This document shows positions 3,146 to 62,303 of a stretch of DNA of 64,000 nt, piece by piece. The notes under the pieces were generated by a model, which made no database searches, was not told the origin of the DNA, and saw nothing but the letters and a program-made list of their open reading frames with translations. The DNA lies in assembly GCA_041664205.1 (NCBI GenBank), contig JBAYLF010000002.1, positions 29,690 through 93,689 of the forward strand, given 5' to 3'. This DNA comes from Minisyncoccota bacterium (GTDB lineage Bacteria > Patescibacteriota > Minisyncoccia > Phycocordibacterales > JBAYLF01). The position numbers were made by a program, and so were the translations under genes. How positions within the stretch are numbered: the stretch's first letter is position 1; every line of letters begins with the position of its first letter.

Positions 3146-4405
3146 TTATTTATCTTTCTTTTTTAAAAAAAATTTGAACTGGCCTAGTATTTTTTTGTAT
3201 ATTTCTACGCATTTTTGAGCCGCGTTTTTCCATGATATCGTTTTAACTTCATTCAACGAGTTACTTTTTAGTGTGGATGATAAGGATTCATTTTTTAGCA
3301 CAGATACAATTTTATTAGTTAACTCGTCTGTATCCCAAAAATCAACTTTTAAAGCATGATTTACAACTTCAGATACTCCTGACTGTTTGGAAACGATAAC
3401 AGGCGTGCCGTGTTGCATTGCTTCTAATGCTGTTAATCCAAAAGGTTCAGAAACAGAAGGCATAATAAAAAGATCTGCATTTTTATACAAACTGTTTAAT
3501 TCTTCATCACGTAAAAAACCTGAAAAAAGAACTCGATCCGAAATGCCGAGTTGCGCCGTCTGTCTAATGATCTGATTTTGCATATCACCGCTTCCAGCAA
3601 CGATAAAAAATGTGTTCGGGCAAAATTCAAGCACTTTTTTAGCAGATTTTAAGAAGTAGTCTGGACCTTTTTGAATAGTAATACGTCCTACAAAAATAAC
3701 AATCTTGCCTCCGTTGGTTTTTATTATTCTGAAAAAATCACTTTTATTTTGATCTTTCTGAGTTTCTTCTTTGTTTTCTATGCCGTTATGCACGACTTGG
3801 ATTTTTTCGGGTGGTATTCCATATTTTGATATTATTACATCCTTTGTAAAATTACTTACGGCAATTATTGCGTCTGCATACTCCATACCTTGCTTTTCAA
3901 GTAAGTAGATCTCATTATTTATACCTGTTCCTCCCGTTCGATCGAATTCTGTCGAGTGAATATGAACTATTAAGGGCTTACCTGAAATTTTCTTTGCTTC
4001 GATTCCCGCTCCAAAAGAAAGCCAATCATGAGCGTGAATAATGTTGAAGTTTTCTTCTTTTGCTATTTCCCTAGCTCTTAATGCATAAAGTTTAACGGCG
4101 TCTATTAAATCCATTCCATAATCGCCAAAATTACCTCTTTTTTTTAAAAAATCATCTTCTGTTAAATATGGCGAGATAAGCGAGTCGATGATTTTGTAAT
4201 TAACTAGATGTGAATCGGCAAAATGCAACTTTACCGGAGAATTCTTAATGTCGATTTTTTTAGGAAGAACAAAGATGATTTCAGCATTTTCTCCAACTAT
4301 AGCCTTTGTAAGTCCTAAACATGCAACACCTAAACCCCCACTATTAAATGGAGGAAATTCCCAACCGAACATTAAAACTCTGATTCTTTCATCCCCAGAA
4401 CCCAT
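3146..4405 (-). CDS. Glycosyltransferase, GT4/GT5 glycogen-(alpha-glucan)-synthase-like
   Basis: 419 aa. Has an N-terminal FPPFNSGGLGVA (KxGGL-like) motif and a C-terminal GT-B fold EX7E-like region (EPFGLTALEAM). Confidence 0.7.
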   Translation of the reverse strand: MGSGDERIRVLMFGWEFPPFNSGGLGVACLGLTKAIVGENAEIIFVLPKKIDIKNSPVKLHFADSHLVNYKIIDSLISPYLTEDDFLKKRGNFGDYGMDLIDAVKLYALRAREIAKEENFNIIHAHDWLSFGAGIEAKKISGKPLIVHIHSTEFDRTGGTGINNEIYLLEKQGMEYADAIIAVSNFTKDVIISKYGIPPEKIQVVHNGIENKEETQKDQNKSDFFRIIKTNGGKIVIFVGRITIQKGPDYFLKSAKKVLEFCPNTFFIVAGSGDMQNQIIRQTAQLGISDRVLFSGFLRDEELNSLYKNADLFIMPSVSEPFGLTALEAMQHGTPVIVSKQSGVSEVVNHALKVDFWDTDELTNKIVSVLKNESLSSTLKSNSLNEVKTISWKNAAQKCVEIYKKILGQFKFFLKKKDK

Positions 4406-9481: not shown

Positions 9482-10900
<1,419 letters not shown>

Positions 10901-25379: not shown

Positions 25380-25631
25380 TTACTTTTTCAGTAATAATTT
25401 ACACAAATCAATTTTCTTTTCTCTCGGCCAGCTTTTTATCTCAGCCTCGCGCTTTGACGCACTGCTTCTGTCTTTATGCTCTTCCGTATAAAGAATTTTT
25501 GTAACTTTTCTAGAGCTTGTATAATGTCCGCCTTTTCCGCTTTTATGTTCTTCAAATCTCCTTTTAACATCAGTGGTTATTCCAGTATAAAGAGACCCAT
25601 CGCTACATTTTAAAATGTAAACAAAATACAT
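25380..25631 (-). CDS. GIY-YIG nuclease family protein (UPF0213/YhbQ-like)
   Basis: 83 aa, YFVYILKCSDGSLYTGITTDVKRRFEEHKSGKG. This is the classic YhbQ-type GIY-YIG. The start is 30 bp from palindromic element copy A. Confidence 0.8.
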   Translation of the reverse strand: MYFVYILKCSDGSLYTGITTDVKRRFEEHKSGKGGHYTSSRKVTKILYTEEHKDRSSASKREAEIKSWPREKKIDLCKLLLKK

Positions 25632-25661
25632 AAGTTATATTTTATCAGAATTGCATATTCT

Positions 25662-25735
25662 CTGTCATTCCCGCGCAGGCGGGAATCCAGATTAAACAGA
25701 TATGAACTAGATTCCCGCCTGCGCGGGAATGACAG
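25662..25735. repeat. Palindromic GC-rich repeat element, miniature copy A
   Basis: ctgtcattcccgcgcaggcgggaatccag, then a 16-bp spacer, then ctagattcccgcctgcgcgggaatgacag. The two halves are reverse complements, each a hairpin with an 8-bp stem. Its final ctag supplies the stop codon of the GH gene 25707..26789. Confidence 0.85.
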
Positions 25736-26789
25736 AAGTATTGAATAGATTTCTAGCCTCATTCCAAATTTCTGGCTGATTATGTTTTGTCTTCATCCAA
25801 TACCACCATTCTACGCCCCAAAAATAAAATTTGCTTAAGCCTGTTTGTTTTGCAAACTCAACATCTTCTTTAAACATTTTTAAATTCATTGATTGAGCTT
25901 GTTCTTCCAAAGAAGATTCCATAAGTGGCGCGCCTGTCCAAGGCTCCGCCTGCAATTCTATACAAATAACATCCTTATCAAAAACTTTTTTTATAATCTG
26001 CACCTTTCTCATATAAGTTACAGGATTTAAGAAAGAGTAAGTTCCAAAACCGAAAGTGTCCGTTACGCTCGTCCAAGCATTTCTATACATCGTAATTCCA
26101 ACAATATCGCCGATCTTCGCCGCACCGAACCATGTCGACTGCTCTCCGGAATCAGAAATAATTATTTTCCTTGTCGGATCAAGCGACTTCACCAAAGCAA
26201 CTTCTGCTTTCAGAAAATCATCGCTTCTATAATACCAAGAAGGACATTCACCGAAATAAAATAAAGGTTCATTCTCTACCTGCCAGTTAATGATCGCTTT
26301 TGAACCTTTGTATCTTTCAACAACCTTTGTGACATATTTTAAAAGTTGCACCTGCTGTTCTTCTTTTGATAAACCACTCATCCACGAAGGCGTGTGGCAC
26401 TCAGGCCATCTTCCTGTTTTCAAACCAACAACAAAAATAATTTTTACATTATTTTTTTCTGCCTGCTTAATCTGCCAATCAATATCATCAAAAAAATATT
26501 TATCTTTTTCTGTTTCAACCGCATTCCAATTTGTATGAAGTTTTATATTTTTTGCGCCAAGATCATTTATTATTGCTGAATAAGTTTCTTTCCAATCGAG
26601 TCCGAAATATTCTGCCTGCGACTGTGAAAAATCAACTCCCCACGGAGAATTGCTTGGAGTTTGCGAGCTAGCGCTTAAAGAAAAAGGCCAAGGAATAAAA
26701 AAGTAACCTAAAATTGCCATTATAAAAATAATGACCGCAATACCTAGTGAGATTAACTTTTTTCTATGTAAACCTATATTTTTAAGCAT
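25707..26789 (-). CDS. Membrane-anchored glycoside hydrolase, clan GH-A-like (GH5/GH113-type TIM barrel)
   Basis: 360 aa with an N-terminal TM helix and a WQVENEP motif (the NEP acid/base of clan GH-A). The last 9 codons and the stop are encoded by repeat copy A. Confidence 0.5.
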   Translation of the reverse strand: MLKNIGLHRKKLISLGIAVIIFIMAILGYFFIPWPFSLSASSQTPSNSPWGVDFSQSQAEYFGLDWKETYSAIINDLGAKNIKLHTNWNAVETEKDKYFFDDIDWQIKQAEKNNVKIIFVVGLKTGRWPECHTPSWMSGLSKEEQQVQLLKYVTKVVERYKGSKAIINWQVENEPLFYFGECPSWYYRSDDFLKAEVALVKSLDPTRKIIISDSGEQSTWFGAAKIGDIVGITMYRNAWTSVTDTFGFGTYSFLNPVTYMRKVQIIKKVFDKDVICIELQAEPWTGAPLMESSLEEQAQSMNLKMFKEDVEFAKQTGLSKFYFWGVEWWYWMKTKHNQPEIWNEARNLFNTSVIPAQAGI

Positions 26790-35819: not shown

Positions 35820-37310
35820 ATGACCCAAGAACCACAAGATAAATCAAATGGGGACGGAGGAGGATCGCTCTTACAACTCGCGGCTATAGTTGAAGAATCT
35901 CACGACGCCATCATAGGTGAAACACTTGAAGGCATCATCACTAGTTGGAATGGTGGCGCAACGAAGATGTTTGGTTATTCTGCAGAGGAAGCGATAGGAA
36001 AATCAATCTCTATTTTGATCCCTTTAGAAATGAAAGATGAGGCGTTATTACTGTTAAATAAAGTTGCCGCGGGAGAAGTGATTGCCGACCATGATTCAGT
36101 AAGATCACGAAAAGATGGAACAAAGATTAATGTTGCGATATCTGTTTCTCCTGTCCACACAAAAGATGGTGTAATAATCGGCGCTTCGGTTGTTGAACGC
36201 GACATAACACTGCGTAAAAAATCTGAAGAATCAATGCGTCAGATTCAACTAATTGTAGAAAACTCACACGACGCAATTATTGGTAAAACACTTGAAGGCA
36301 TCATCACTAGTTGGAATGGTGGCGCAACGAAGATGTTTGGTTATTCTCCTGACGAAGTAATTGGAAAACCAATGACAAATCTATTTCCAGCAGAACTTAA
36401 GGATGAATTACCAAAATTACTTGAAAAGGTAAAACAGGGAGAAGTGATTGCTGATTATGATTCAATTTGGTTACGAAAAGATAATTCTCGCGCTGATGTG
36501 GAATTTTCAATCTCACCCGTTCATGCTGAAGATGGCACAATTATTGGTGCTTCTCTTGTTGGTAGAGATATTACAGAACGTAAAAAAAACGAAAAAGAAA
36601 TTAAAGAGCTGAACGAAGTTCGTAATAAATTCATAACCATTATTTCCCATCAATTAAGAACCCCCCTCACGGCCGTAAATTGGAATCTCGAATCAGTATT
36701 AAGTGGTAAATTTGGCAAACTAGAAGATACTGTGAACAAATTTTTACAAATCACCTATAAATCAAGCATTGAAATTACTAATCGTATTAATGATCTGCTT
36801 ACAGCAATGGATATTGAAGAAGGACGCGTAGTATTTCAAAAAGAAGAAGTTGCTCTCGATAGTATAGTCGCAGCAGTTATAAATGAAATGATGAAGAGGA
36901 GTGAAGCAAAAAATATTTCATGGCAATACGCCGCACCTGAGAAAGATCTTCCTGTTATTGAGGGTGATGGTGAAAAAATCCGAACAATTGTTAATAAACT
37001 AATAGAAAATGCGGTTACTTATACTAAAGATAATGGCAAAATTATTATCAAACTTGAAATGCGTGAAGATATGATCCATTTTGAAATCAATGATACTGGT
37101 GTCGGTATTCCTACACCAGAACAACATCGTTTATTTACTCGTTTTTTCCGAGCATCAAACGCTTCAGTTATGCAGCCGGATTCATTCGGACTAGGTCTAT
37201 TTATAACCAAAAGCTTTATTGAGCAACATGGTGGAAAAATCGGATTTGAAAGTAAAGAAGGAGAAGGAAGTATATTCTGGTTTGAGATACCAATAAAATC
37301 TACTCATTAA
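35820..37310 (+). CDS. Sensor histidine kinase with two tandem PAS domains (HisKA + HATPase_c)
   Basis: 496 aa. Two near-identical PAS blocks (EESHDAIIGETLEGIITSWNGGATKMFGYS...). H-box ISHQLRTPL. N/G1/G2 boxes (ENAVTYT, DTGVGIP, GLGL). Confidence 0.85.
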   Translation: MTQEPQDKSNGDGGGSLLQLAAIVEESHDAIIGETLEGIITSWNGGATKMFGYSAEEAIGKSISILIPLEMKDEALLLLNKVAAGEVIADHDSVRSRKDGTKINVAISVSPVHTKDGVIIGASVVERDITLRKKSEESMRQIQLIVENSHDAIIGKTLEGIITSWNGGATKMFGYSPDEVIGKPMTNLFPAELKDELPKLLEKVKQGEVIADYDSIWLRKDNSRADVEFSISPVHAEDGTIIGASLVGRDITERKKNEKEIKELNEVRNKFITIISHQLRTPLTAVNWNLESVLSGKFGKLEDTVNKFLQITYKSSIEITNRINDLLTAMDIEEGRVVFQKEEVALDSIVAAVINEMMKRSEAKNISWQYAAPEKDLPVIEGDGEKIRTIVNKLIENAVTYTKDNGKIIIKLEMREDMIHFEINDTGVGIPTPEQHRLFTRFFRASNASVMQPDSFGLGLFITKSFIEQHGGKIGFESKEGEGSIFWFEIPIKSTH

Positions 37311-39930: not shown

Positions 39931-40950
39931 TTATTTAGATTTGTCAATAAAATTTTCTATTATCTTTTCCACTTCATCAGCATTTTCTGCTTCCATAAGT
40001 TGCATTCTTAATTCTTTAGCGCCGTCAAAGCCATTAACATAAGCTTTGAAATGCTTTTTCATTACTGCAAAATTTTTATGAGAAACAAGTTTTTCAAAAA
40101 GTTTTGTATGCTCAACTAACACTTTTAATTTTTCTGAAGTTTCAACCGAAGCATCTTCAACTTCTTGTACGTTTTTAAATTTTTCTAAATTAGCAAAAAG
40201 CCAAGGGTTTCCAAAAATCCCCCGCCCTATCATGACGCCGTCGCAGCCAGTTTCCCTCACCCTCTGAAACGCTTCACTTAAATTATTTACATCGCCATTT
40301 CCCAATATCAAAGTTTTGCTTTTTCTTTCGTCACGGATCTCAACCGCTCTTTTTACAAAATCCCAATTCGCTGGAACTTTCGACATTTCTTTTCTTGTGC
40401 GTGCATGAACTATTATCGCAACAGGTTCTGTTTCAAGAATTTCAGGAAGCCATGACTCAAGTTCATTTTTATTAAATCCGATGCGAGTTTTTACAGAAAC
40501 AGGAACATTGCCAGCACCTCTCTTAGCTGCATAAATTATTTCTTTCGCCAGCTTTGGATTTTTCATCAAGGCTGCTCCAGCTTTTTGCTTTTCAATACTT
40601 TTATCGGGACAGCCCATGTTTATATCAATTCCATCAAAACCCATCTCTGCTGCGAGGCGCGCAGCTTCTTCTATAGTTTCTGGATTAGAAGTAAAAAATT
40701 GCACGACAATAGGTCGTTCGGATTCATCGAACTTTAGATCTTTTATAAGTTGCTCTTTACCACCAACCCCACTCCGCGAAGCGCTTCGCGGTGCAAAGCA
40801 AAGTCCGTCAGCTGAAACAAATTCAGTCCACAAAACATCGGGCTTGCCATATTTGGCAATAATTTTTCTGAAAGCGACGTCTGTAACATCCGCCATTGGT
40901 GCCAAAGCGATTATTGGTTTTTTTATTTTTTCCCAAAAAGACATTAACAA
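39931..40950 (-). CDS. dusB: tRNA-dihydrouridine synthase
   Basis: 339 aa with the Dus signature (ALAPMADVTDVAFR, FMN/TIM-barrel motifs, catalytic Cys region NMGCP). Confidence 0.8.
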   Translation of the reverse strand: MLMSFWEKIKKPIIALAPMADVTDVAFRKIIAKYGKPDVLWTEFVSADGLCFAPRSASRSGVGGKEQLIKDLKFDESERPIVVQFFTSNPETIEEAARLAAEMGFDGIDINMGCPDKSIEKQKAGAALMKNPKLAKEIIYAAKRGAGNVPVSVKTRIGFNKNELESWLPEILETEPVAIIVHARTRKEMSKVPANWDFVKRAVEIRDERKSKTLILGNGDVNNLSEAFQRVRETGCDGVMIGRGIFGNPWLFANLEKFKNVQEVEDASVETSEKLKVLVEHTKLFEKLVSHKNFAVMKKHFKAYVNGFDGAKELRMQLMEAENADEVEKIIENFIDKSK

Positions 40951-40975
40951 AACATTAACATATTTTTCATATACG

Positions 40976-41370
40976 TGTCATTCCCGCCTGCCCGCCATGC
41001 AAGGCAAAGCGTTGCAGGCAGGCGAAGGCGGGAATCCAGTATAATCCTCACATGAACAAAAATTATTATGTTTATATATTAGCAAGTAAAAAGAATGGGA
41101 CTTTATATATAGGGGTTACAAATGATTTAGTACGCAGAATTTACGAACATAAAAACGGTTTAATTGAAGGATTTACTAAAAAATACAATATAAAAAATCT
41201 GGTTTATTATGAAGAAACCAATGATATAAACAGTGCCTTAAGTAGAGAAAAAAGTTTAAAAAAATGGAACAGAGAATGGAAACTAAAACTTATTGAGTTA
41301 AATAATCCGGAGTGGAATGATTTGAGTTTAGATTTATAAAACTGGATTCCCGCCTGCGCGGGAATGACAG
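40976..41370. mobile_element. Candidate full-length element: GIY-YIG nuclease gene bracketed by the same GC-rich palindromic termini as the 74-bp miniature repeats
   Basis: Left end tgtcattcccgcc...gaaggcgggaatccag (40976-41039, expanded/degenerate). The GIY-YIG ORF is at 41052-41339. Right end ctggattcccgcctgcgcgggaatgacag (41342-41370), 2 bp after the stop codon. Confidence 0.55.
41052..41339 (+). CDS. GIY-YIG nuclease family protein
   Basis: 95 aa, YYVYILASKKNGTLYIGVTNDLVRRIYEHKNG (GIY-YIG core, YhbQ-like). Confidence 0.8.
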   Translation: MNKNYYVYILASKKNGTLYIGVTNDLVRRIYEHKNGLIEGFTKKYNIKNLVYYEETNDINSALSREKSLKKWNREWKLKLIELNNPEWNDLSLDL

Positions 41371-44358: not shown

Positions 44359-45180
44359 TTAATGTTTTTTATAATATATTTTATTGCCGAATCTTAGATC
44401 GACATAATCTAAATTTTTGAAGAAGTCGCCGTTTTTATTTTCAACCTTATAATCTTCCAATACTGAGTTTAAATTTTCAAGAGTATTTTCAAAAGAGGTT
44501 TTTTTATTGAATAATATTTTTCCTCCTCCTTCAACCACTGCTTCAAACTCTTGTTCTTGCTTATAAAATATATCTGTAATGTTTATCTGTTCATTTTTTA
44601 GATTAGAAACAAAATGTGATAGATCTTTAAAATCTGAACTATTTAGAAATGTTTTACCAATAATATTTTCATCTGAAATAAAACCATGATAATGCGTATA
44701 AACACTTCCAGAAATTTGGGGGGCTTCATCAAATACGAAACCCTCCTCATCTAAAAAGTAACATTTTTGATCACACCACAAAGCTACTGGTTTTCTTTCG
44801 GTTATCAAGACATTGAGTGTTTGAAAATCCTTTAATTTAAGTTCTACATTTTTTATTCTAGTAAAATTATTTAGCAATTTATTCTTTAAATCTCCTTTTG
44901 GATAAATCAAAGAATTACTTTTTGCTAAAATATGCCCATAACTTCCATTAAGAGCACTTGAAACAAAAGCTTTTAAATCGCTTGATTTTACAGACAGATT
45001 CCCTTCGAAATTAATACTCGCAATAGTAATCGATTTTAATTTTGAGATATAAGAAATACCAGAAAGCAAAGTCATTGTAGAAATGACAATTAAAACAAAC
45101 TTAAAGAAAAACTTCGCGCTACTTTTTTTACCGCTTTTTCTAGATCGCGAAGATTTTAAAAGTTTTTTACTTCCAAACAT
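44359..45180 (-). CDS. ftsQ: Cell division protein FtsQ/DivIB-like (POTRA domain)
   Basis: 273 aa. Basic N-terminus, one TM helix, then POTRA-like region (ITIASINFEGNLSVKSSDLKAFV...LNVLITERKPVALW). Confidence 0.55.
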   Translation of the reverse strand: MFGSKKLLKSSRSRKSGKKSSAKFFFKFVLIVISTMTLLSGISYISKLKSITIASINFEGNLSVKSSDLKAFVSSALNGSYGHILAKSNSLIYPKGDLKNKLLNNFTRIKNVELKLKDFQTLNVLITERKPVALWCDQKCYFLDEEGFVFDEAPQISGSVYTHYHGFISDENIIGKTFLNSSDFKDLSHFVSNLKNEQINITDIFYKQEQEFEAVVEGGGKILFNKKTSFENTLENLNSVLEDYKVENKNGDFFKNLDYVDLRFGNKIYYKKH

Positions 45181-45189
45181 AAAGGTACT

Positions 45190-45264
45190 TTGTCATTCCC
45201 GCGCAGGCGGGAATCTAGTTTCTTATTTCAACGGTCTGGATTCCCGCCTGCGCGGGAATGACAG
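45190..45264. repeat. Palindromic GC-rich repeat element, miniature copy C
   Basis: ttgtcattcccgcgcaggcgggaatctag, 17-bp spacer, ctggattcccgcctgcgcgggaatgacag. Lies 14 bp downstream of the serS stop. Confidence 0.85.
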
Positions 45265-45278
45265 AAAGATTGCCGAAT

Positions 45279-46553
45279 TTATTTTTTAGATATAACCTTT
45301 CTTCCTCCCATCCACTTTTGCAAAACTTCAGGGATTTTTATAGAACCATCTGCTTGTTGATTGTTTTCAATAATAGAAATAAGAACGCGAGGTGTAGCGA
45401 TCGCTGTATTGTTTAATGAGTGAGTAAACTTTAACTTACCGTCGCTATCTTTGTATCTGATATTAAGACGTCTTGTTTGAAAATCGTGAAAATATGAAGA
45501 CGAATGTGTTTCGCGATATTTATTTTCTGATGGCACCCAACATTCGATATCATATTTTTTGACTTGGCCCAATCCCAAATCTCCTCCGCAATTTATTACG
45601 ACGTGATAAGGAAGTCCTAATCCTTGAATTATTTTTTCTGCATTTAATGTAAGTTCTTCGTGATGCTTTACGCTTTCTTCATGACTAGCTTCACAAAGCA
45701 CGACTTGTTCAAATTTATAAAATTCATGAACTCGCATTATTCCTTTCGTATCTTTTCCATGGCTTCCTGCTTCCCTTCTTAAACATGGAGAAAAAGAAAA
45801 GAATTTTATAGGCAACTTAGATTTGTCTACAACTTCATCGGCATAATATGACATAGTTGGCACTTCGGCTGTTCCTGTTAAGAAATCACCATCCTGTGTT
45901 TTATAGAGATCTTCTTCGCCTTGTGGAAGATAACCTGAACCCATAAGAGTTTCGCGCTTAACAATAAGCGGTGTGATCATAGGAGTAAAACCGCCTTTCT
46001 TATGAAATTCCTCTAAAAGATAATTCCAGATCGCAAAAGATAACTCTGCGCCTTCATTCTTCAAAAAATATCCACGAAAACCTGAAACTCTGGCTCCTCT
46101 TTCAAAATCAACCATATCAAGCGACTCCATAAGCTCTACATGATCTTTCGGAGTAAAATCAAATTTTGGAATTTCTCCCCAAGTTCTTACTTCGACATTA
46201 CCAGAATCGTCTACTCCTTCTGGCACTGAGATATCAGGAATGTTCGGCACCTTAACCATAAGCTGTTGCCAATTCTTCATCACTTCTTTTAATTTTTCCT
46301 CTTCCACTTGAATCTCATCTTTAACCATTTTCATTTTAGCAATTATTAAATTGCGCTCAGCCGGATCACTCACTTGAACGATCTTTTGGCTAACTTCGTT
46401 CTGCTCAGTGCGTTTTTTTTCAACTACAGCAAGAATCTTTTTTCGTTCATCATCAATAGTAATTAAATCATCAACGTTGAATTCAAGATGCTTTTTCTTT
46501 GCACCTGCCTGTATTAAATCTTTGTGTTCCCTAATAAATTTTATATCTAACAT
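45279..46553 (-). CDS. serS: Seryl-tRNA synthetase
   Basis: 424 aa, class II aaRS motifs with an N-terminal coiled-coil arm. Confidence 0.9.
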   Translation of the reverse strand: MLDIKFIREHKDLIQAGAKKKHLEFNVDDLITIDDERKKILAVVEKKRTEQNEVSQKIVQVSDPAERNLIIAKMKMVKDEIQVEEEKLKEVMKNWQQLMVKVPNIPDISVPEGVDDSGNVEVRTWGEIPKFDFTPKDHVELMESLDMVDFERGARVSGFRGYFLKNEGAELSFAIWNYLLEEFHKKGGFTPMITPLIVKRETLMGSGYLPQGEEDLYKTQDGDFLTGTAEVPTMSYYADEVVDKSKLPIKFFSFSPCLRREAGSHGKDTKGIMRVHEFYKFEQVVLCEASHEESVKHHEELTLNAEKIIQGLGLPYHVVINCGGDLGLGQVKKYDIECWVPSENKYRETHSSSYFHDFQTRRLNIRYKDSDGKLKFTHSLNNTAIATPRVLISIIENNQQADGSIKIPEVLQKWMGGRKVISKK

Positions 46554-46651: not shown

Positions 46652-47509
46652 ATGCATAAAATCAATCAATTAACGAAAGATGAATTCCCAGAACTACTGA
46701 AAGAAATTCCGGATCAGCCTAAAACCTTATATCTTCAAGGAAACTTGCCGTCTTATGAAGAAAATAAGTTTCTTTGTGTTGTTGGTTCTAGAAAATACAG
46801 CAACTATGGAAAAGAGGTCTGTGAAAAATTAATAAGCGGACTTCGCGGATATCCTATAGTAATTGTATCTGGACTTGCTTTGGGAATTGATGGTATCGCT
46901 CATAGAGCGGCGCTTGATGCAGGACTTAAGACTGTCGCTGTGCCAGGTTCAGGTCTTAATCCAAATGTTTTATATCCAAGCACTCACAGAGGTCTTGCTC
47001 AAAAAATTTTAGAAAATGATGGCGCACTTTTAACAGAGTTCGAACCGAATTTCCACGCAACAGTCTGGAGTTTTCCACAAAGAAACAGAATTATGGCAGG
47101 ACTCTCGCATGCAATACTAATTATTGAAGCTGAATTAAAATCTGGAACATTGATAACTTCGCGACTCGCAACAGATTACAACAGAGACGTCCTAACTGTT
47201 CCCGGATCTATTTTTTCAAAAAATTCTGAAGGGCCCAATATGTTAATGCGACTCGGCGCAACTCCAATAACTTCAAGCAAAGAACTTTTGGAAGCGCTTG
47301 GCTTTAATGAAGAAGCAACTGCAACCAAAAATTATAGTGACTGTTCAGAATTAGAAATAAAAGTTTTAAAACTTTTGGAAGTGCCGATATCTCGCGATGA
47401 ACTTTTAAGAACTTTGGAAATCCCTGTAAGTGAAGCGAACGCGCTTATCTCAATTTTAGAAATTAAAGGATTCATCAAAGAAAGCGCTGGAGAAATTCAT
47501 CTCGTATAA
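46652..47509 (+). CDS. dprA: DNA-processing protein DprA (Smf)
   Basis: 285 aa, Rossmann-like DprA core (VVGSRKYSNYG...VSGLALGIDGIAHRAALD). Confidence 0.8.
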   Translation: MHKINQLTKDEFPELLKEIPDQPKTLYLQGNLPSYEENKFLCVVGSRKYSNYGKEVCEKLISGLRGYPIVIVSGLALGIDGIAHRAALDAGLKTVAVPGSGLNPNVLYPSTHRGLAQKILENDGALLTEFEPNFHATVWSFPQRNRIMAGLSHAILIIEAELKSGTLITSRLATDYNRDVLTVPGSIFSKNSEGPNMLMRLGATPITSSKELLEALGFNEEATATKNYSDCSELEIKVLKLLEVPISRDELLRTLEIPVSEANALISILEIKGFIKESAGEIHLV

Positions 47510-48786: not shown

Positions 48787-50988
48787 ATGAAGTTACTTAT
48801 CGTAGAGTCTCCGGCAAAAGCAAAAACAATTTCAAAATATCTTGATGGTAAATATAAAGTTGTCGCATCGATTGGACATATTCGTGATTTACCAAAGAGC
48901 AACAAAGAAGCTATAGATATAGAAGGAGGATTTATTCCCCATTATGTTGTTCCAAAAGAAAAAGAAAAAGTTGTTGCAGAAATAACCGAACTCGCAAAAA
49001 AATCTGACGAAATTATGTTAGCGACTGACCCCGACCGTGAAGGCGAGGCTATTGCTTGGCATATCGATAGACTTATTCATGAGAGAAATTCAAAAGATAA
49101 GAAGTCTAAAAAACCATTAATAAGAAGAATTGTTTTTCATGAAATAACAAAAGAAGCCGTGCAAGAAGCTGAAAAGCATCCCCGCGGTATTGATCAAAAT
49201 CTTCGCCGTGCTCAAGAAGCAAGACGTGTGCTTGATCGTTTGGTTGGATACGATCTTTCTGGTCTTATATGGAAAAAAGTTCGTTACGGACTTTCAGCTG
49301 GACGCGTGCAGTCCCCTGCGCTTCGTATCATTATGGAACGCGAGCGAGAAATTCGCGCTTTCCAATCTGAGAAATATTGGGCACTTACTGCATCACTTGA
49401 AACAAAGAAAGATGAAAAGATTCCTACTACTTGCGACACAGAGCCTACAGACTTTAAAGAAGTAGAAAGAATTTTAAAGGCGGGTAAGGCTGGTAAATGG
49501 TCTGTCGTAGATATTTCAGAAACCGAAGTAAAAAGACAACCAAAAGCACCGTTCATTACTTCAACACTTCAACAAACAGCAAGCTCACGACTAGGATTTT
49601 CTCCATCGAAGACTATGTCCGTCGCTCAAAAGTTGTATGAAAACGGACTCATTACTTACATGAGAACGGACAGCACAAATTTAAGCGAGGTTGCACTTAA
49701 ACAAATAAATTCAATTATTGTAAAAAAATATGGCGATAGTTTCCTATCACCTAGAACTTTTGCTACAAAAAGTAAAAATGCTCAAGAGGCTCACGAAGCA
49801 ATACGCCCCAGCGATGTATCAAAAGAAAGAGCAGGTTTTAATGCAGAGCAGAAAAGCTTATATCAACTCATTTGGCAACGCACAGTAGCATCGCAAATGA
49901 CTGAAGCGAAAATACTTCGAACAAAAATATCAACAAACATAGAAGACAAATCTATACCTGATTTTTCTGCACACGGTTCAAGAACATTATTTTATGGTTG
50001 GATGTCGGCAGACCCTGAAGCGCGAGGTGATGATGTGGAACTTCCAAAAATTTCAAAAGGCGATCCTTTAAACCTTTTGGAAATCAATTCTTTAGAAAAG
50101 CAAACGGAACCGCCTCCTCGATATACAGAAGCAGGACTTGTAAAAGAACTTGAAAAAAGAGGCATCGGACGACCTTCAACTTATGCTAGTATTATAAAAA
50201 CATTAGGAGATCGAGGTTATGTAACCAAAGAAAACAAATCGCTCACACCTACAGATACGGGCGATGTTGTAAGCACATTCTTGGAAAATAATTTTACACA
50301 ATATATAAGCGATTCATTTACCGCAGAAATGGAAGATAAACTAGACGACATTGCTTCTGGAACTGGAGAATATGAAAAAACATTATCAACATTCTATAAA
50401 CCTTTCTTAAAAGAAGTGAAATTAAAATCAAAAACAGAAAAAAAGATAACAGACCTTGGCCCAGCACCAAAAGAATTTCCATGTCCTATATGCGGAGCTT
50501 CGATGGTTTTTAAATTGAGTAAAAATGGAAAATTTATGAGCTGTTCAAAATTCCCAGAATGCACAGGCGCTAGAACTGTGGAAGGAAAAGAATTGGAGGG
50601 TCCAAAAGAAACTGGCGAACTTTGTCCGGAATGTAGCGGCAAACTTTTAGAACGAGATGGAAAATTCGGAAGATTTATTGCGTGCGGAAATTACCCAAAG
50701 TGCAAATATATTAAAAAAGACGCGGCTCTAGAAATGAAAAATTCAACTGGAATAAAATGCCCTGTTTGCAAAGAAGGTGAAATGACAGAGCGACGCGGTA
50801 GATTTGGAATTTTCTATAGTTGCACCAATTATCCAAAGTGCAAATATGCAATCAAAACAAAGCCTACTGGAAATCTTTGTAAAATGTGCGGTTCGCTAAT
50901 GATGGAGGGCACAAAAACTATCCCGGAAAGATGTAGTGTTAAAGAATGTCCGAATCATAACCCTCACAAATTAAATAAGATCGAGTAA
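48787..50988 (+). CDS. topA: DNA topoisomerase I
   Basis: 733 aa with a Toprim N-terminus (LLIVESPAKAKTI), active-site Tyr region and C-terminal zinc ribbons (C..C...C..C repeated). Confidence 0.9.
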   Translation: MKLLIVESPAKAKTISKYLDGKYKVVASIGHIRDLPKSNKEAIDIEGGFIPHYVVPKEKEKVVAEITELAKKSDEIMLATDPDREGEAIAWHIDRLIHERNSKDKKSKKPLIRRIVFHEITKEAVQEAEKHPRGIDQNLRRAQEARRVLDRLVGYDLSGLIWKKVRYGLSAGRVQSPALRIIMEREREIRAFQSEKYWALTASLETKKDEKIPTTCDTEPTDFKEVERILKAGKAGKWSVVDISETEVKRQPKAPFITSTLQQTASSRLGFSPSKTMSVAQKLYENGLITYMRTDSTNLSEVALKQINSIIVKKYGDSFLSPRTFATKSKNAQEAHEAIRPSDVSKERAGFNAEQKSLYQLIWQRTVASQMTEAKILRTKISTNIEDKSIPDFSAHGSRTLFYGWMSADPEARGDDVELPKISKGDPLNLLEINSLEKQTEPPPRYTEAGLVKELEKRGIGRPSTYASIIKTLGDRGYVTKENKSLTPTDTGDVVSTFLENNFTQYISDSFTAEMEDKLDDIASGTGEYEKTLSTFYKPFLKEVKLKSKTEKKITDLGPAPKEFPCPICGASMVFKLSKNGKFMSCSKFPECTGARTVEGKELEGPKETGELCPECSGKLLERDGKFGRFIACGNYPKCKYIKKDAALEMKNSTGIKCPVCKEGEMTERRGRFGIFYSCTNYPKCKYAIKTKPTGNLCKMCGSLMMEGTKTIPERCSVKECPNHNPHKLNKIE

Positions 50989-50991
50989 TCT

Positions 50992-51066
50992 CTGTCATTC
51001 CCGCGAAGGCGGGAATCCAGACAGTGTAGGTAAAAACCTAGATTCCCGCCTTCGCGGGAATGACAA
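50992..51066. repeat. Palindromic GC-rich repeat element, miniature copy D
   Basis: ctgtcattcccgcgaaggcgggaatccag, 17-bp spacer, ctagattcccgccttcgcgggaatgacaa. The loop variant gaag/cttc changes compensatorily in both halves. Lies 3 bp after the topA stop. Confidence 0.85.
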
Positions 51067-51079
51067 TGTTGGAGTTAAA

Positions 51080-51124
51080 AATAAATAAAAAAAGCGCTCA
51101 AGTTCTAGAACTTGAGCGCTTTGG
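51080..51124. terminator. Bidirectional rho-independent terminator
   Basis: Perfect palindrome aagcgctcaagtt-ctag-aacttgagcgctt, flanked by an A-run and a T-run. Confidence 0.6.
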
Positions 51125-51144: not shown

Positions 51145-51336
51145 TTACCTTCCTAAGTAATGACTTGGGTTCAGAGGCCGATCGGACTCTTCCTGCTTGC
51201 GAATGGCCTGCCATGCATTACCGGTGGTAACAACGCGGCGGTCCAATCCTCCAGTGACCAATTCTCCACAACGAACGCCGGGAGTTAGTGCACCTGTATT
51301 TGCTTTTGCGCTTGTGTTTACTTTCGTTTTTGTCAT
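51145..51336 (-). CDS. Hypothetical small protein (63 aa) in an unusually GC-rich (about 50 %) segment
   Basis: ATG preceded by SD ggagaa. Ends at the bidirectional terminator. Codon usage and GC are atypical for the window. No recognisable domain. Confidence 0.35.
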   Translation of the reverse strand: MTKTKVNTSAKANTGALTPGVRCGELVTGGLDRRVVTTGNAWQAIRKQEESDRPLNPSHYLGR

Positions 51337-60284: not shown

Positions 60285-60483
60285 AAATATTGTGAGACTT
60301 GTCTATCAATAGGATTTCTTGGAGAAATTTAATAGATTTCGAGCGAAGCGCGGTAAAAAATTTTGAAGAATACCTTTTTGGTATTTTGAAAAATTTTTAA
60401 CAAGCTGCAGCCGAAATCCGTTAAATTTATACAGAAAGGTTGTTGATAGACAAGTCTATTCTAACATTTTGAGATATCGACGC

Positions 60484-60517
60484 AAGAAAAATCACCACGA
60501 CCGTAGGTCGTGGTGAT
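60484..60517 (-). terminator. Rho-independent terminator
   Basis: atcaccacgacc-gtag-ggtcgtggtgat, with a minus-strand T-run. Confidence 0.5.
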
Positions 60518-60547
60518 ACATCAAAATTGAGTAAATTTCTGTTTTGA

Positions 60548-60643
60548 TCATAGAAACTTTTTTTTATTAGGTTTCTTATCAAAAGCACAGAGAGTCAATA
60601 TGATCAACGATTGATAAATAAAAAATCCAATCAATACTTCCAT
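60548..60643 (-). CDS. Putative 31-aa hydrophobic peptide
   Basis: MEVLIGFFIYQSLIILTLCAFDKKPNKKKFL. Strong SD ggaggaataat. The terminator follows 20 bp downstream. Below the ORF-track size cutoff. Confidence 0.3.
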   Translation of the reverse strand: MEVLIGFFIYQSLIILTLCAFDKKPNKKKFL

Positions 60644-61052
60644 ATTATTCCTCCTTTTTTTAAAAAAGCACTATACTTTTTATCTACTTAGAATGATATC
60701 ATATTTTTATTTAAATGTCAATAATAATCTTTCTACCTAGGTGAAAAAGCAATCAGTGTAAAAAAGATAAAAACTATAGAAATACCGACAATTCCAAAAA
60801 TCTGAAGATAGAGACCTGCAAGCCAGGTAAAACCAGCTTTATTGGCTAGAGCTTTATTTTCAGGATTCTTTTTCAACTCCTCATAAAGAACTTTTTCTTT
60901 CTTCCATAAAAAATTCCAGCAAAGAAAAATATATTAGAAATAATTAAAATAATACATAACTGCATTTCATACTGAATAATTATGTTATACATATTTAATT
61001 CTCCTTCTGAATTATAAGGTATCGTTCTTGCAGTATTTCGTCAAATTCCATT

Positions 61053-61125
61053 CTGTCATTCCCGCGAAGGCGGGAATCCAGATTAAACAGAGATAAACTA
61101 GATTCCCGCCTTCGCGGGAATGACA
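61053..61125. repeat. Palindromic GC-rich repeat element, miniature copy E
   Basis: ctgtcattcccgcgaaggcgggaatccag, spacer attaaacagagataaa (near-identical to the copy A spacer), ctagattcccgccttcgcgggaatgacaa. Lies 11 bp beyond the cysteine desulfurase stop. Confidence 0.85.
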
Positions 61126-61136
61126 AGAAATTTTGA

Positions 61137-62303
61137 TTATAAATTCAGAGCGTTTAATTTTTCTATACAAATATCGATATCTTTTTTTGTAGTTTCTCTA
61201 CCGAGAGTAAAGCGAAGTGACGAAATAGCGCATTCTTTTTTGCCAATTGCAGATATTACATATGAAGAAGAATCATCTGATAAATTTTTACATGCACTAA
61301 CTGACGAGCAAGAAATTCCTTCATGATCAAGTTTAATAACTGTAAATTCAGCATCTATTCCTGGAAAACAAACGTTTATATTATTTGGCAGACGTTTTTC
61401 TATATCGCCATTAAGGCTCGCGTTAGGAAAATGCTTTAAAACTTTATCGATAAAATAGTCGCGAAGCTTCACAAGTCTTTCAGATTCTTTTTCTCTGTCA
61501 TTTTGTGCAATTTCAAGAGCCAAAGATACACCGAAAATTTTCTCTACATCTTCGGTGCCAGATCGAAGTCCACCTTCCTGCCCTCCTCCAAAAATAATCG
61601 GTAAAATTTCTAACTGATTTTTTTTAAGAAGAATTCCTGCACCTTTTGGTCCATAAAATTTTGAGGAATCGAGTGTCATCATATCTATTCCTAAAGCCTC
61701 TCTAAGCAGAGTTAAATAATTTGCCGCTTGTGAAGCATCTGTGTGAAAATATGGCAAAACATCATCACTATCTTTTTTAGACGCTCTGTATTTTTTTATT
61801 ACTCTTCCTATTTCAGATATTGGCTGAATTGTGCCGATCTCATTATTTGCATACATTACAGAAACAAGCACTGTGTTAAGCTTCAAAGCTTTTTCAACGT
61901 CTTTTGCAATAACGATTCCATTTTCTTGAGGTTTGATGTAAGTAACTTCCCCACCCTGCCTCTCAATTTCTTTCATAGTTTCTAATATAGAAGAATGCTC
62001 AAATTCAGAAGTTATAAAATGTGGCTTGAATTTTCCTTTGTAAAAATTAAATGTCCCCAATATTGCTAGATTGTTTGATTCCGTTCCGCTTCCTGTAAAA
62101 TATACTTCGTCTGATTTAACGCCAAATATCCTCGCGATGTTTGTTCGTGATTGTTCGAGCACCTTTCTAGCCTCTACTCCTTCCTTATAAAGCCCTGATG
62201 GATTTGCGAAATTATTTTTTGCAAAATCATTCATCGCTTTTTTCACTTTTGAGTGAATCGGGGTTGTGGAAGCATAATCAAAATATATTCGTTTATTTGA
62301 CAT
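61137..62303 (-). CDS. Cysteine desulfurase (aminotransferase class V, IscS/NifS-like)
   Basis: 388 aa with N-terminal YFDYASTTP, a PLP-lysine region and the SSxSACxxxSxxPS-like Cys loop (SCSSVSACKN). Confidence 0.85.
   Translation of the reverse strand: MSNKRIYFDYASTTPIHSKVKKAMNDFAKNNFANPSGLYKEGVEARKVLEQSRTNIARIFGVKSDEVYFTGSGTESNNLAILGTFNFYKGKFKPHFITSEFEHSSILETMKEIERQGGEVTYIKPQENGIVIAKDVEKALKLNTVLVSVMYANNEIGTIQPISEIGRVIKKYRASKKDSDDVLPYFHTDASQAANYLTLLREALGIDMMTLDSSKFYGPKGAGILLKKNQLEILPIIFGGGQEGGLRSGTEDVEKIFGVSLALEIAQNDREKESERLVKLRDYFIDKVLKHFPNASLNGDIEKRLPNNINVCFPGIDAEFTVIKLDHEGISCSSVSACKNLSDDSSSYVISAIGKKECAISSLRFTLGRETTKKDIDICIEKLNALNL

Follow-up and report, generated by a model that had tools for sequence, protein, structure and literature searches.

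Miniature palindromic repeats in a Patescibacteria genome are most probably gene-less doublets of the NTS/SRM hairpin repeat recognised by Ssn GIY-YIG nucleases

The hairpin repeat NTS, CGTCATTCCCGCGMAVGCGGGAATCYRG, was described together with a degenerate pattern for SRM repeats, HGTCWYN(0-2)YYVSBRHN(0-5)WNVSBRGN(0-2)RNCYNB, and in many bacteria the repeats flank ssnA, whose 94-aa product is a single GIY-YIG domain (Chenal et al., Nat Commun 2025; PMC11893778). SsnA binds the hairpin in single-stranded DNA only and nicks a few nucleotides 5' of its GTCAT end, and it is inactive on duplex DNA and on RNA (PMC11893778). Mutagenesis identified the GTC preceding the palindrome and the C following it as critical for both cleavage and binding, and in N. 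meningitidis SsnA together with the NTS lowers transformation by NTS-bearing DNA approximately 5-fold (PMC11893778). Another family of inverted repeats, the NIMEs, had been considered specific to Neisseria (PMC1797815).

Here, we compare with these systems the miniature palindromes found in a 64,000-nucleotide stretch of DNA (the window) from a Paceibacterota (CPR/Patescibacteria) MAG of 34% GC. A sequence-only reading had described the palindromes as a repeat family, and the family is real, but that reading overlooked both the GIY-YIG gene that the repeat flanks and its NTS/SRM identity. Because the repeat flanks a GIY-YIG nuclease gene, it can be assigned to the published NTS/SRM-Ssn system, and the miniature palindromes are most probably gene-less doublets of the NTS/SRM hairpin repeat, which is the recognition site of Ssn GIY-YIG nucleases. 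The identity of the arms and the presence of a gene-bearing unit in the same window lead us to regard the doublets as gene-less arm pairs of an NTS-ssnA-NTS unit. As the system was already published in 2025, what is new here is the lineage and the added observations on doublets. A previously unexplained CPR palindrome family is tied to a nuclease system characterised in 2025, and the Ssn/SRM pairing is extended to Patescibacteria, lineages that are not discussed in that work, with Paceibacterota as the group concerned here (PMC11893778).

The doublets are 74-76 bp in size, each with two inverted arms, TGTCATTCCCGCG[C/A]AGGCGGGAATCYAG, around a spacer of 16-17 nt. Doublet A (25661-25736) has its arms at 25663-25690 (+, CCAG) and 25707-25734 (-, CTAG), the 16-nt spacer ATTAAACAGATATGAA and loop letter C in both arms, while doublet B (45190-45265), with arms at 45191-45218 (+, CTAG) and 45236-45263 (-, CCAG), a 17-nt spacer and loop letter C in both, presents the common design in flipped orientation. 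Loop letter A is found in both arms of doublet C (50991-51066; arms 50993-51020, +, and 51038-51065, -; 17-nt spacer) and of doublet E (61052-61126; arms 61054-61081, +, and 61098-61125, -; 16-nt spacer ATTAAACAGAGATAAA). Arms were searched for with GTCATTCCCGCGNAGGCGGGAATC, a 24-nt pattern with one free position, in the window and in 100 dinucleotide-preserving shuffles of it. The window holds nine exact matches, two inverted copies in each of the four doublets and one more at 41345-41368, and the 100 shuffles hold none, which rules out chance palindromes and agrees with the positions first given for the four doublets and for an apparent half copy, all of which were correct. No further arm was present across approximately 18 kb of extra flanking contig (10 kb was sought on each side). 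The two halves of each copy had been called mutual reverse complements, and this is so over the arms with the exception of one position, CCAG vs. CTAG, which breaks the complementarity in all four doublets. The loop letters are mirrored, reading gcag/ctgc at 25662 and 45190 and gaag/cttc at 50992 and 61053, and two of the four differences between doublets A and E, which are 95% identical over 74 nt, are these mirrored letters.

A single arm is a small hairpin in which ATTCCCGC and GCGGGAAT form an 8-bp stem around a 4-nt loop (-10 to -11 kcal/mol as DNA). Doublet A as a whole folds into a 30-bp hairpin of -37 to -38.5 kcal/mol as ssDNA and -63.5 kcal/mol as RNA (z about -12 to -14), and in ssDNA doublets this long hairpin (about -37 kcal/mol) is preferred over two short ones (about -11 kcal/mol each). 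Palindromy and sequence conservation stop 1-2 nt outside GTCAT. It should be noted that this end of the palindromy lies close to the reported cut position of SsnA.

The gene-bearing unit occupies 394 bp at 40976-41370 and consists of an arm, a 95-aa GIY-YIG gene and an inverted arm. Its left terminal arm (40976-41040, +; ends TGTCATTCCCGC ... GAAGGCGGGAATCCAG) lies 26-32 nt upstream of the dus start and contains a 36-nt hairpin-forming loop insertion (40988-41023). The intact gene of the ssnA homologue follows at 41052-41339 (+) and the right terminal arm at 41342-41369 (-), which begins 2 nt past the ssnA stop and is 12 nt from the stop of a ClpB-like gene. The loop letters of the unit differ between its left arm (A) and its right arm (C). 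It was initially thought that 41342-41370 was a lone half copy; however, its partner arm is present at 40976-41040, and it is therefore the right end of the 394-bp unit. Relatives have an uninterrupted arm at the left-arm position, and no sequence related to the 36-nt insertion was detected among the fetched loci. The gene-bearing copy may be immobile, given that its left arm is interrupted and fails the SRM regex.

The product of 41052-41339 is a single-domain nuclease, with PF01541 over residues 4-78 (E 5.6e-17) and no other domain. Matches to WD40 were discarded as spurious low-score repeats, similarity to UPF0213 structures is weak (E 1e-4), an indirect sign of cd10448 (Ssn) rather than cd10456 (UPF0213), and searches of NCBIfam and of PDB sequences returned no specific name. 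For comparison with the gonococcus, the window ORF was run by tblastn against two N. gonorrhoeae chromosomes that PLSDB lists as plasmids, each of which gave one locus, a 94-aa ORF with Y6, Y17, and E64, the catalytic residues that had been mutated in N. meningitidis SsnA (PMC11893778). From this sole match per chromosome, its length and its residues, we infer that the gonococcal ORF is the orthologue of NMV_0044. The window protein shares 63% identity with this 94-aa gonococcal SsnA over 89 residues with no gaps (E 3e-42), inside the limit of E < 1e-10 to Neisseria SsnA applied to the Ssn family in PMC11893778, and its catalytic Y8/Y19/E66 align with Y6/Y17/E64. The ssnA-adjacent arms of N. 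gonorrhoeae face the opposite way to those of the window unit. Homologues of the nuclease at 60-84% identity are distributed among Omnitrophota, Ignavibacteriota, Chloroflexota, Nitrospirota, Pseudomonadota, and many CPR lineages, and close homologues occur in Taylor-, Uhr-, Howlett-, Kerfeld-, and Staskawiczbacteria, Saccharibacteria, and Peribacteria. The window has a second small GIY-YIG ORF at 25380-25631 (-), of 83 aa and 30 nt from doublet A (PF01541, E 5.5e-19), which matches the UPF0213 structures PDB 1zg2 and 1ywl (E 3e-15 and 7e-14) and is 36% identical to gonococcal SsnA and 42% to ORF 41052-41339. It has no arm on the side away from doublet A; we regard it as UPF0213-like, and whether it is part of the Ssn system is uncertain.

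All nine uninterrupted arms match the SRM pattern in full and NTS positions 2-28. None of the nine matches all 28 positions, having T instead of C at position 1, and T at this position is a 25% minority variant among the metagenomic doublets listed. The tenth arm (40976-41040) fails both the NTS and the SRM pattern owing to its loop insertion, and the GTC and C flanking the palindrome are kept in 10/10 arms. The window and the published system have in common the hairpin arm, the critical GTC and C, a single-domain GIY-YIG nuclease of ~94 aa, a gene bracketed by arms, and intergenic repeats (PMC11893778). They differ in that gene-less arms here are all in tight doublets with a 16-17 nt spacer (over 82 kb), rather than solo or in arrays, and in that one gene-flanking arm is interrupted by an insertion.

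Several other repeats share parts of this design. An isolated NIME unit (dRS3-RS-dRS3) has the layout of a doublet, with inverted, exact 20-bp ATTCCC-N8-GGGAAT cores around a short AT-richer segment, and the inter-core segment of the doublets, at 24-25 nt, corresponds to the bottom of the reported RS range of 19-214 nt; however, NIMEs are typically arrayed, whereas the window has no arrays and its host is not Neisseria (PMC1797815). Correia elements and other bacterial MITEs are likewise short, intergenic, bounded by terminal inverted repeats and able to alter gene ends, but the window doublets have neither a target-site duplication nor a DDE partner, and their inverted repeat is itself a hairpin. 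There is also a parallel in architecture with REPINs and their RAYTs, which combine an intergenic unit of two inverted hairpin repeats with a short spacer with a single-copy, repeat-flanked gene for an enzyme that acts on ssDNA hairpins (Bertels and Rainey; PMC3116915, PMC3337134). On architecture, the palindromes could be taken for REP/REPIN elements served by a RAYT (Y1 HUH), or for a TIR-MITE served by a DDE transposase elsewhere in the genome (PMC3337134). This is exceedingly improbable, as the sole gene bracketed by arms, here and in dozens of genomes, encodes a GIY-YIG nuclease and not a Y1 HUH transposase, and the arms have the sequence defined by experiment as the SsnA site; among the genes called in ~65 kb of contig, there is no Y1_Tnp or other transposase Pfam family.

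The gene-bearing and gene-less forms of the repeat also occur outside this genome. At 80 related genome loci from many phyla, arms identified by the strict SRM regex lie on both sides of the gene in 23 and on one side in 26, with a usual geometry of a plus arm at about -35 to -50 and a minus arm at about +8 to +50 from the gene. Gene-less doublets are found in other genomes, often as multiple copies with one spacer: Ca. Omnitrophus magneticus has five, while a Treponema and an alphaproteobacterium carry pairs. When metagenomes were scanned for the canonical doublet, allowing any loop letter in either arm, at least 122 doublets were recovered on contigs of 33-71% GC, and among the metagenomic matches listed at least 22 doublet pairs have a common spacer and unrelated flanks. 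The near-identical spacers of doublets A and E, which had been recognised from the window, belong to such a family: the A/E spacer recurs at a metagenomic locus (L138) between a peptidase gene and rplI, and doublets A, E, and L138 thus place one spacer in three different gene contexts. Four ssn homologues were present in 632 kb of doublet-bearing contigs, and two of these adjoin a doublet.

The recurrence of spacer families at unrelated sites bears out the earlier proposal that copies behave as units and do not drift freely. Some copying process is needed to account for the same doublet and spacer at unrelated sites, and the sequence comparisons are evidence, rather than proof of a mechanism, that the whole doublet, spacer included, would be copied to new sites. 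No target-site duplication of >=3 nt was found at the doublets, which show a weak 2-nt signal, and mobility is therefore deduced only from the dispersal of spacer families. In a second sample (SRR6484324) contigs break inside doublet A (L206) and 41 nt past the serS stop (L208); since the breaks are at the same doublets, the insertions are present there too, and these contigs carry no information on presence/absence polymorphism. An empty site was sought via the closest hydrolase homologues and the FtsQ-like neighbour and none was found, synteny being lost and the nearest relatives being 36-76% identical, such that the boundaries of the insertions remain inferred.

These observations also bear on a different account, in which the doublets are immobile, host-maintained marks, a role put forward for Neisseria, at which SsnA fragments incoming ssDNA and limits recombination near particular genes, with spread by recombination only. 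The approximately 5-fold reduction of transformation by SsnA and the NTS in N. meningitidis (PMC11893778) is in line with such a role, as is the failure to find a target-site duplication, and uptake of single-stranded DNA is plausible considering that dprA lies in the window and ComEC is present in relatives. However, identical doublets with identical spacers occur at unrelated sites both within and between genomes, and topA, serS, the desulfurase, and the hydrolase have no obvious common need for protection. We consider immobile marks unlikely, and the arm-pair account is retained below.

The loop letters bear on how the two arms of a doublet are related. Co-variation of the loop between halves had been proposed, and in doublets with identical arms the letters do change together: they agree in 111/122 canonical metagenomic doublets among the matches listed, a sample conditioned on both arms being otherwise exact. 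Single spacer families (A/E/L138, L099/L105/L200, the L106 family, and L126/L185) hold both AA and CC states, with AC or TA intermediates rare among the metagenomic matches listed, and few contigs carry mixed loop variants in the within-contig comparison. The proposal does not extend to SRM pairs in general, however, as the letters agree in only 13/54 pairs of an unconditioned sample from viral contigs, where doublets with unlike arms are common, nor does it amount to compensatory change in a stem. What was termed covariation is the identity of two inverted arms and not compensatory covariation of the RNA type. We conclude that some process keeps the two arms of homo-arm doublets identical, and that this does not apply to SRM pairs at large; the candidates are templated repair in the snapped-back hairpin, nuclease preference, and selection for pairing.

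The best-supported account of the window treats its doublets as arm pairs, themselves non-autonomous, of the NTS-ssnA-NTS unit, with the enzymology of the window SsnA presumed to resemble that of its characterised homologues. Doublets would arise from NTS-ssnA-NTS by internal deletion or otherwise, would be non-autonomous, and would spread as units in a manner analogous to REPINs with their RAYT. SsnA would recognise the doublet arms whenever the DNA is single-stranded and, because the arms of a doublet point outward, would nick at both outer boundaries, one per strand, in agreement with the end of palindromy and conservation 1-2 nt outside GTCAT. In this way doublets could mark cut sites on ssDNA, whether incoming transforming DNA or replication or repair intermediates, and once snapped back into the 30-bp hairpin a doublet would be protected instead of cut. 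In the favoured long hairpin the arms are in duplex form, on which SsnA has no cutting activity in vitro, and doublets may therefore be poor SsnA substrates, shielded from cleavage. Effects on neighbouring genes, including the altered end of the hydrolase and the spurious ORFs discussed below, would be by-products of insertion.

A more far-reaching and tentative possibility, which we think has less than an even chance of being correct, is that NTS doublets are true REPIN-like replicators served by a GIY-YIG nuclease rather than by a tyrosine transposase. SsnA would then nick the snapped-back doublet at its outer boundaries, and copying or repair would template one arm on the other, which would lead doublets to disperse with their spacers and both loop letters to switch together with few mixed intermediates. 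We know of no strand-transfer activity of Ssn. If it were true, Ssn would be a second, unrelated enzyme class that maintains a hairpin-repeat population, and one that reaches tiny CPR genomes. Unit dispersal, concerted loop letters, and the distinction between like- and unlike-arm doublets together give a handle on the question of NTS mobility. Patescibacteria are thought to depend on DNA uptake, and an ssDNA-specific nuclease and its sites could shape what they can recombine.

The repeats had been described as clustering at gene 3' ends. All five window elements are intergenic, and each either overlaps a stop codon or is no more than 14 nt from one: doublet B follows the serS stop by 14 nt and precedes the longest start of an FtsQ-like ORF (44359-45180) by 9 nt, doublet C is 3 nt past the topA stop, and doublet E is 11 nt past the stop of the cysteine desulfurase gene. 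The distances of 3-14 bp beyond stops that had been given hold for serS, topA, the desulfurase, and the ClpB-like gene (14, 3, 11, and 12, respectively), but not for the dusB side, where dus presents its 5' end. In this tightly packed genome, however, four of the five elements also lie just upstream of the next gene. Location was examined with 45 doublets from low-GC contigs, in which ORFs of >=100 aa cover 73% of the sequence. None of these 45 doublets lies inside an ORF, and their flanking gene ends number 36 3' vs. 36 5'. The suggested bias toward gene 3' ends consequently does not survive the larger sample; the positional bias is intergenic.

This result weighs on the idea that the doublets act mainly as RNA, either as 3'-UTR terminators or mRNA protectors or as sRNAs like the Wolbachia WsnRNA46, with the nuclease link being secondary. 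As RNA the doublets are very stable hairpins (-54 to -64 kcal/mol), those in the window lie 3-14 nt past a stop codon or overlap one, three of the four match Rfam RF02625 WsnRNA46 (E 2.5e-6 to 1.8e-10), and WsnRNA-46 has been reported as an expressed regulatory sRNA (PMC12796755). Against this, in addition to the even split of flanking gene ends, two doublets are oriented one way and two the other with respect to transcription, full hairpins are not followed by a U-tract, and topA has its own canonical terminator at 51091-51122, 25 nt further on. An intrinsic-terminator scan found no T run after any full doublet and flagged three single arms with a T-rich spacer or flank, only one of which (41365-41346) shares its strand with the upstream gene. 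Moreover, the conserved GTC, C, and stem sequence are features that SsnA reads on DNA. A mainly RNA-based role is, in our judgement, distinctly improbable.

The Rfam similarity deserves separate consideration. At the gathering threshold an Rfam scan of the window returned tRNAs only. The RF02625 scores of doublets E, C, and B (51, 42.8, and 37 bits) are all below the gathering value of 65.3, generic miRNA-hairpin models score similarly, and doublet A gave nothing at E <= 1e-4. The RF02625 consensus nevertheless consists of inverted UGUCAU...AUCCAG arms around a spacer, to which doublets C and E align end to end, although the stems differ in sequence and the spacer is ~50 nt longer in Wolbachia. 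Judging from these arms, WsnRNA46 is probably a Wolbachia SRM doublet. The RF02625 match does not establish the window copies as functional RNAs; it suggests instead that a DNA repeat of this kind has been published as a symbiont "small RNA" at least once.

Lastly, the Ssn/SRM identity accounts for several ORFs in the annotation that are spurious and for one protein whose C-terminus is altered. At 25707-25736, the glycoside hydrolase-like gene 25707-26789 (-) takes its last nine codons (SVIPAQAGI) and its TAG from the right arm of doublet A. That copy A supplies the C-terminus and stop of this gene was part of the sequence-only reading, and translation agrees, with 8-9 repeat-encoded residues appended. 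The comparison with homologues that it had proposed points the same way: the 39 closest end 0-5 residues past a conserved ...NEAKxLF, and VIPAQAGI, the repeat-encoded tail, is found in 0/39. A further suggestion, that the repeat supplies the final codons of 51145-51336, has to be dropped, since this is a minus-strand ORF whose stop, at 51145, is 79 nt from the doublet. The frames 45083-45289 and 61120-61326 are artefacts, as had been supposed, and so is the antisense frame 40616-41044. In frame 61120-61326 it is the start codon, and not the end, that comes from the repeat.

Doublets with unlike arms occur outside this lineage. At the Ca. Omnitrophus magneticus locus L007 such hetero-arm doublets lie at 3477-4059 and 9804-9898; four form a tandem run with a period of ~162 nt and a common 49-nt spacer, and a fifth adjoins the ssn gene of this organism. 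The tandem run resembles an array of NIMEs, the dRS3-RS-dRS3 elements of Neisseria, in a host outside that genus. In N. gonorrhoeae itself (L215, NZ_CP119140.1, 1880760-1884053), the arms beside ssnA are oriented opposite to those of the window. This chromosome and that of NZ_CP119142.1, each of 2.17 Mb, are filed as plasmids in PLSDB. The Rfam model of Wolbachia sRNA 46 (RF02625) was also compared with the window at doublets B, C and E (45191-45263, 50975-51083, and 61035-61143, respectively). Its consensus consists of two SRM-type arms in an inverted pair, and the published sRNA may be the transcript of an Ssn-related repeat doublet.

The dprA gene (46652-47509) is situated between doublets B and C, and ComEC-like competence genes are present in relatives (L210, 246-1781; L212, 183-1703), which together suggest that the lineage probably imports single-stranded DNA. 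Single-stranded DNA is the substrate form of SsnA.

Within the ssnA unit, the loop of the left arm carries a hairpin-forming insertion of 36 nt (40988-41023), for which no related sequence was found among the fetched loci; in relatives, the arm at this position is uninterrupted. A perfect TATAAT (41041-41046) abuts the same arm, with the ssnA start codon 5 nt further on, and if this is a promoter -10 box, the ssnA transcript would be almost leaderless.

Across 240 arm flanks, taken from L085-L204 and the window, G is scarce in the 13 nt on the 5' side of the arm (8-17%), position -2 is a pyrimidine in 81% of flanks, and 2-nt direct repeats at an offset of 2 are in weak excess (16 vs. 6.6 expected).

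The window also encodes a second small GIY-YIG ORF of 83 aa (25380-25631, reverse strand), its start separated from doublet A by 30 nt. It is closer to UPF0213 proteins (PDB 1zg2, E 3e-15) than to SsnA (36% identity), and no arm is present on its far side, away from doublet A.

Near doublet C, a strong bidirectional terminator (51091-51122) precedes a patch of 55% GC in this 34% GC genome (51150-51300), where a 63-aa gene is called on the reverse strand; the call is without match in Pfam or Rfam, and the patch has a fold z-score of -1.2. Upstream of doublet E, ~770 nt (60285-61052) are devoid of ORFs of at least 60 aa, which is unusual in such a compact genome, and of Rfam matches above threshold. 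Elsewhere, two direct repeats (35886-36482; 366-nt period, 81-83% identity) lie inside a PAS histidine-kinase gene (35820-37310) and are most simply explained as a PAS-domain duplication internal to the gene.
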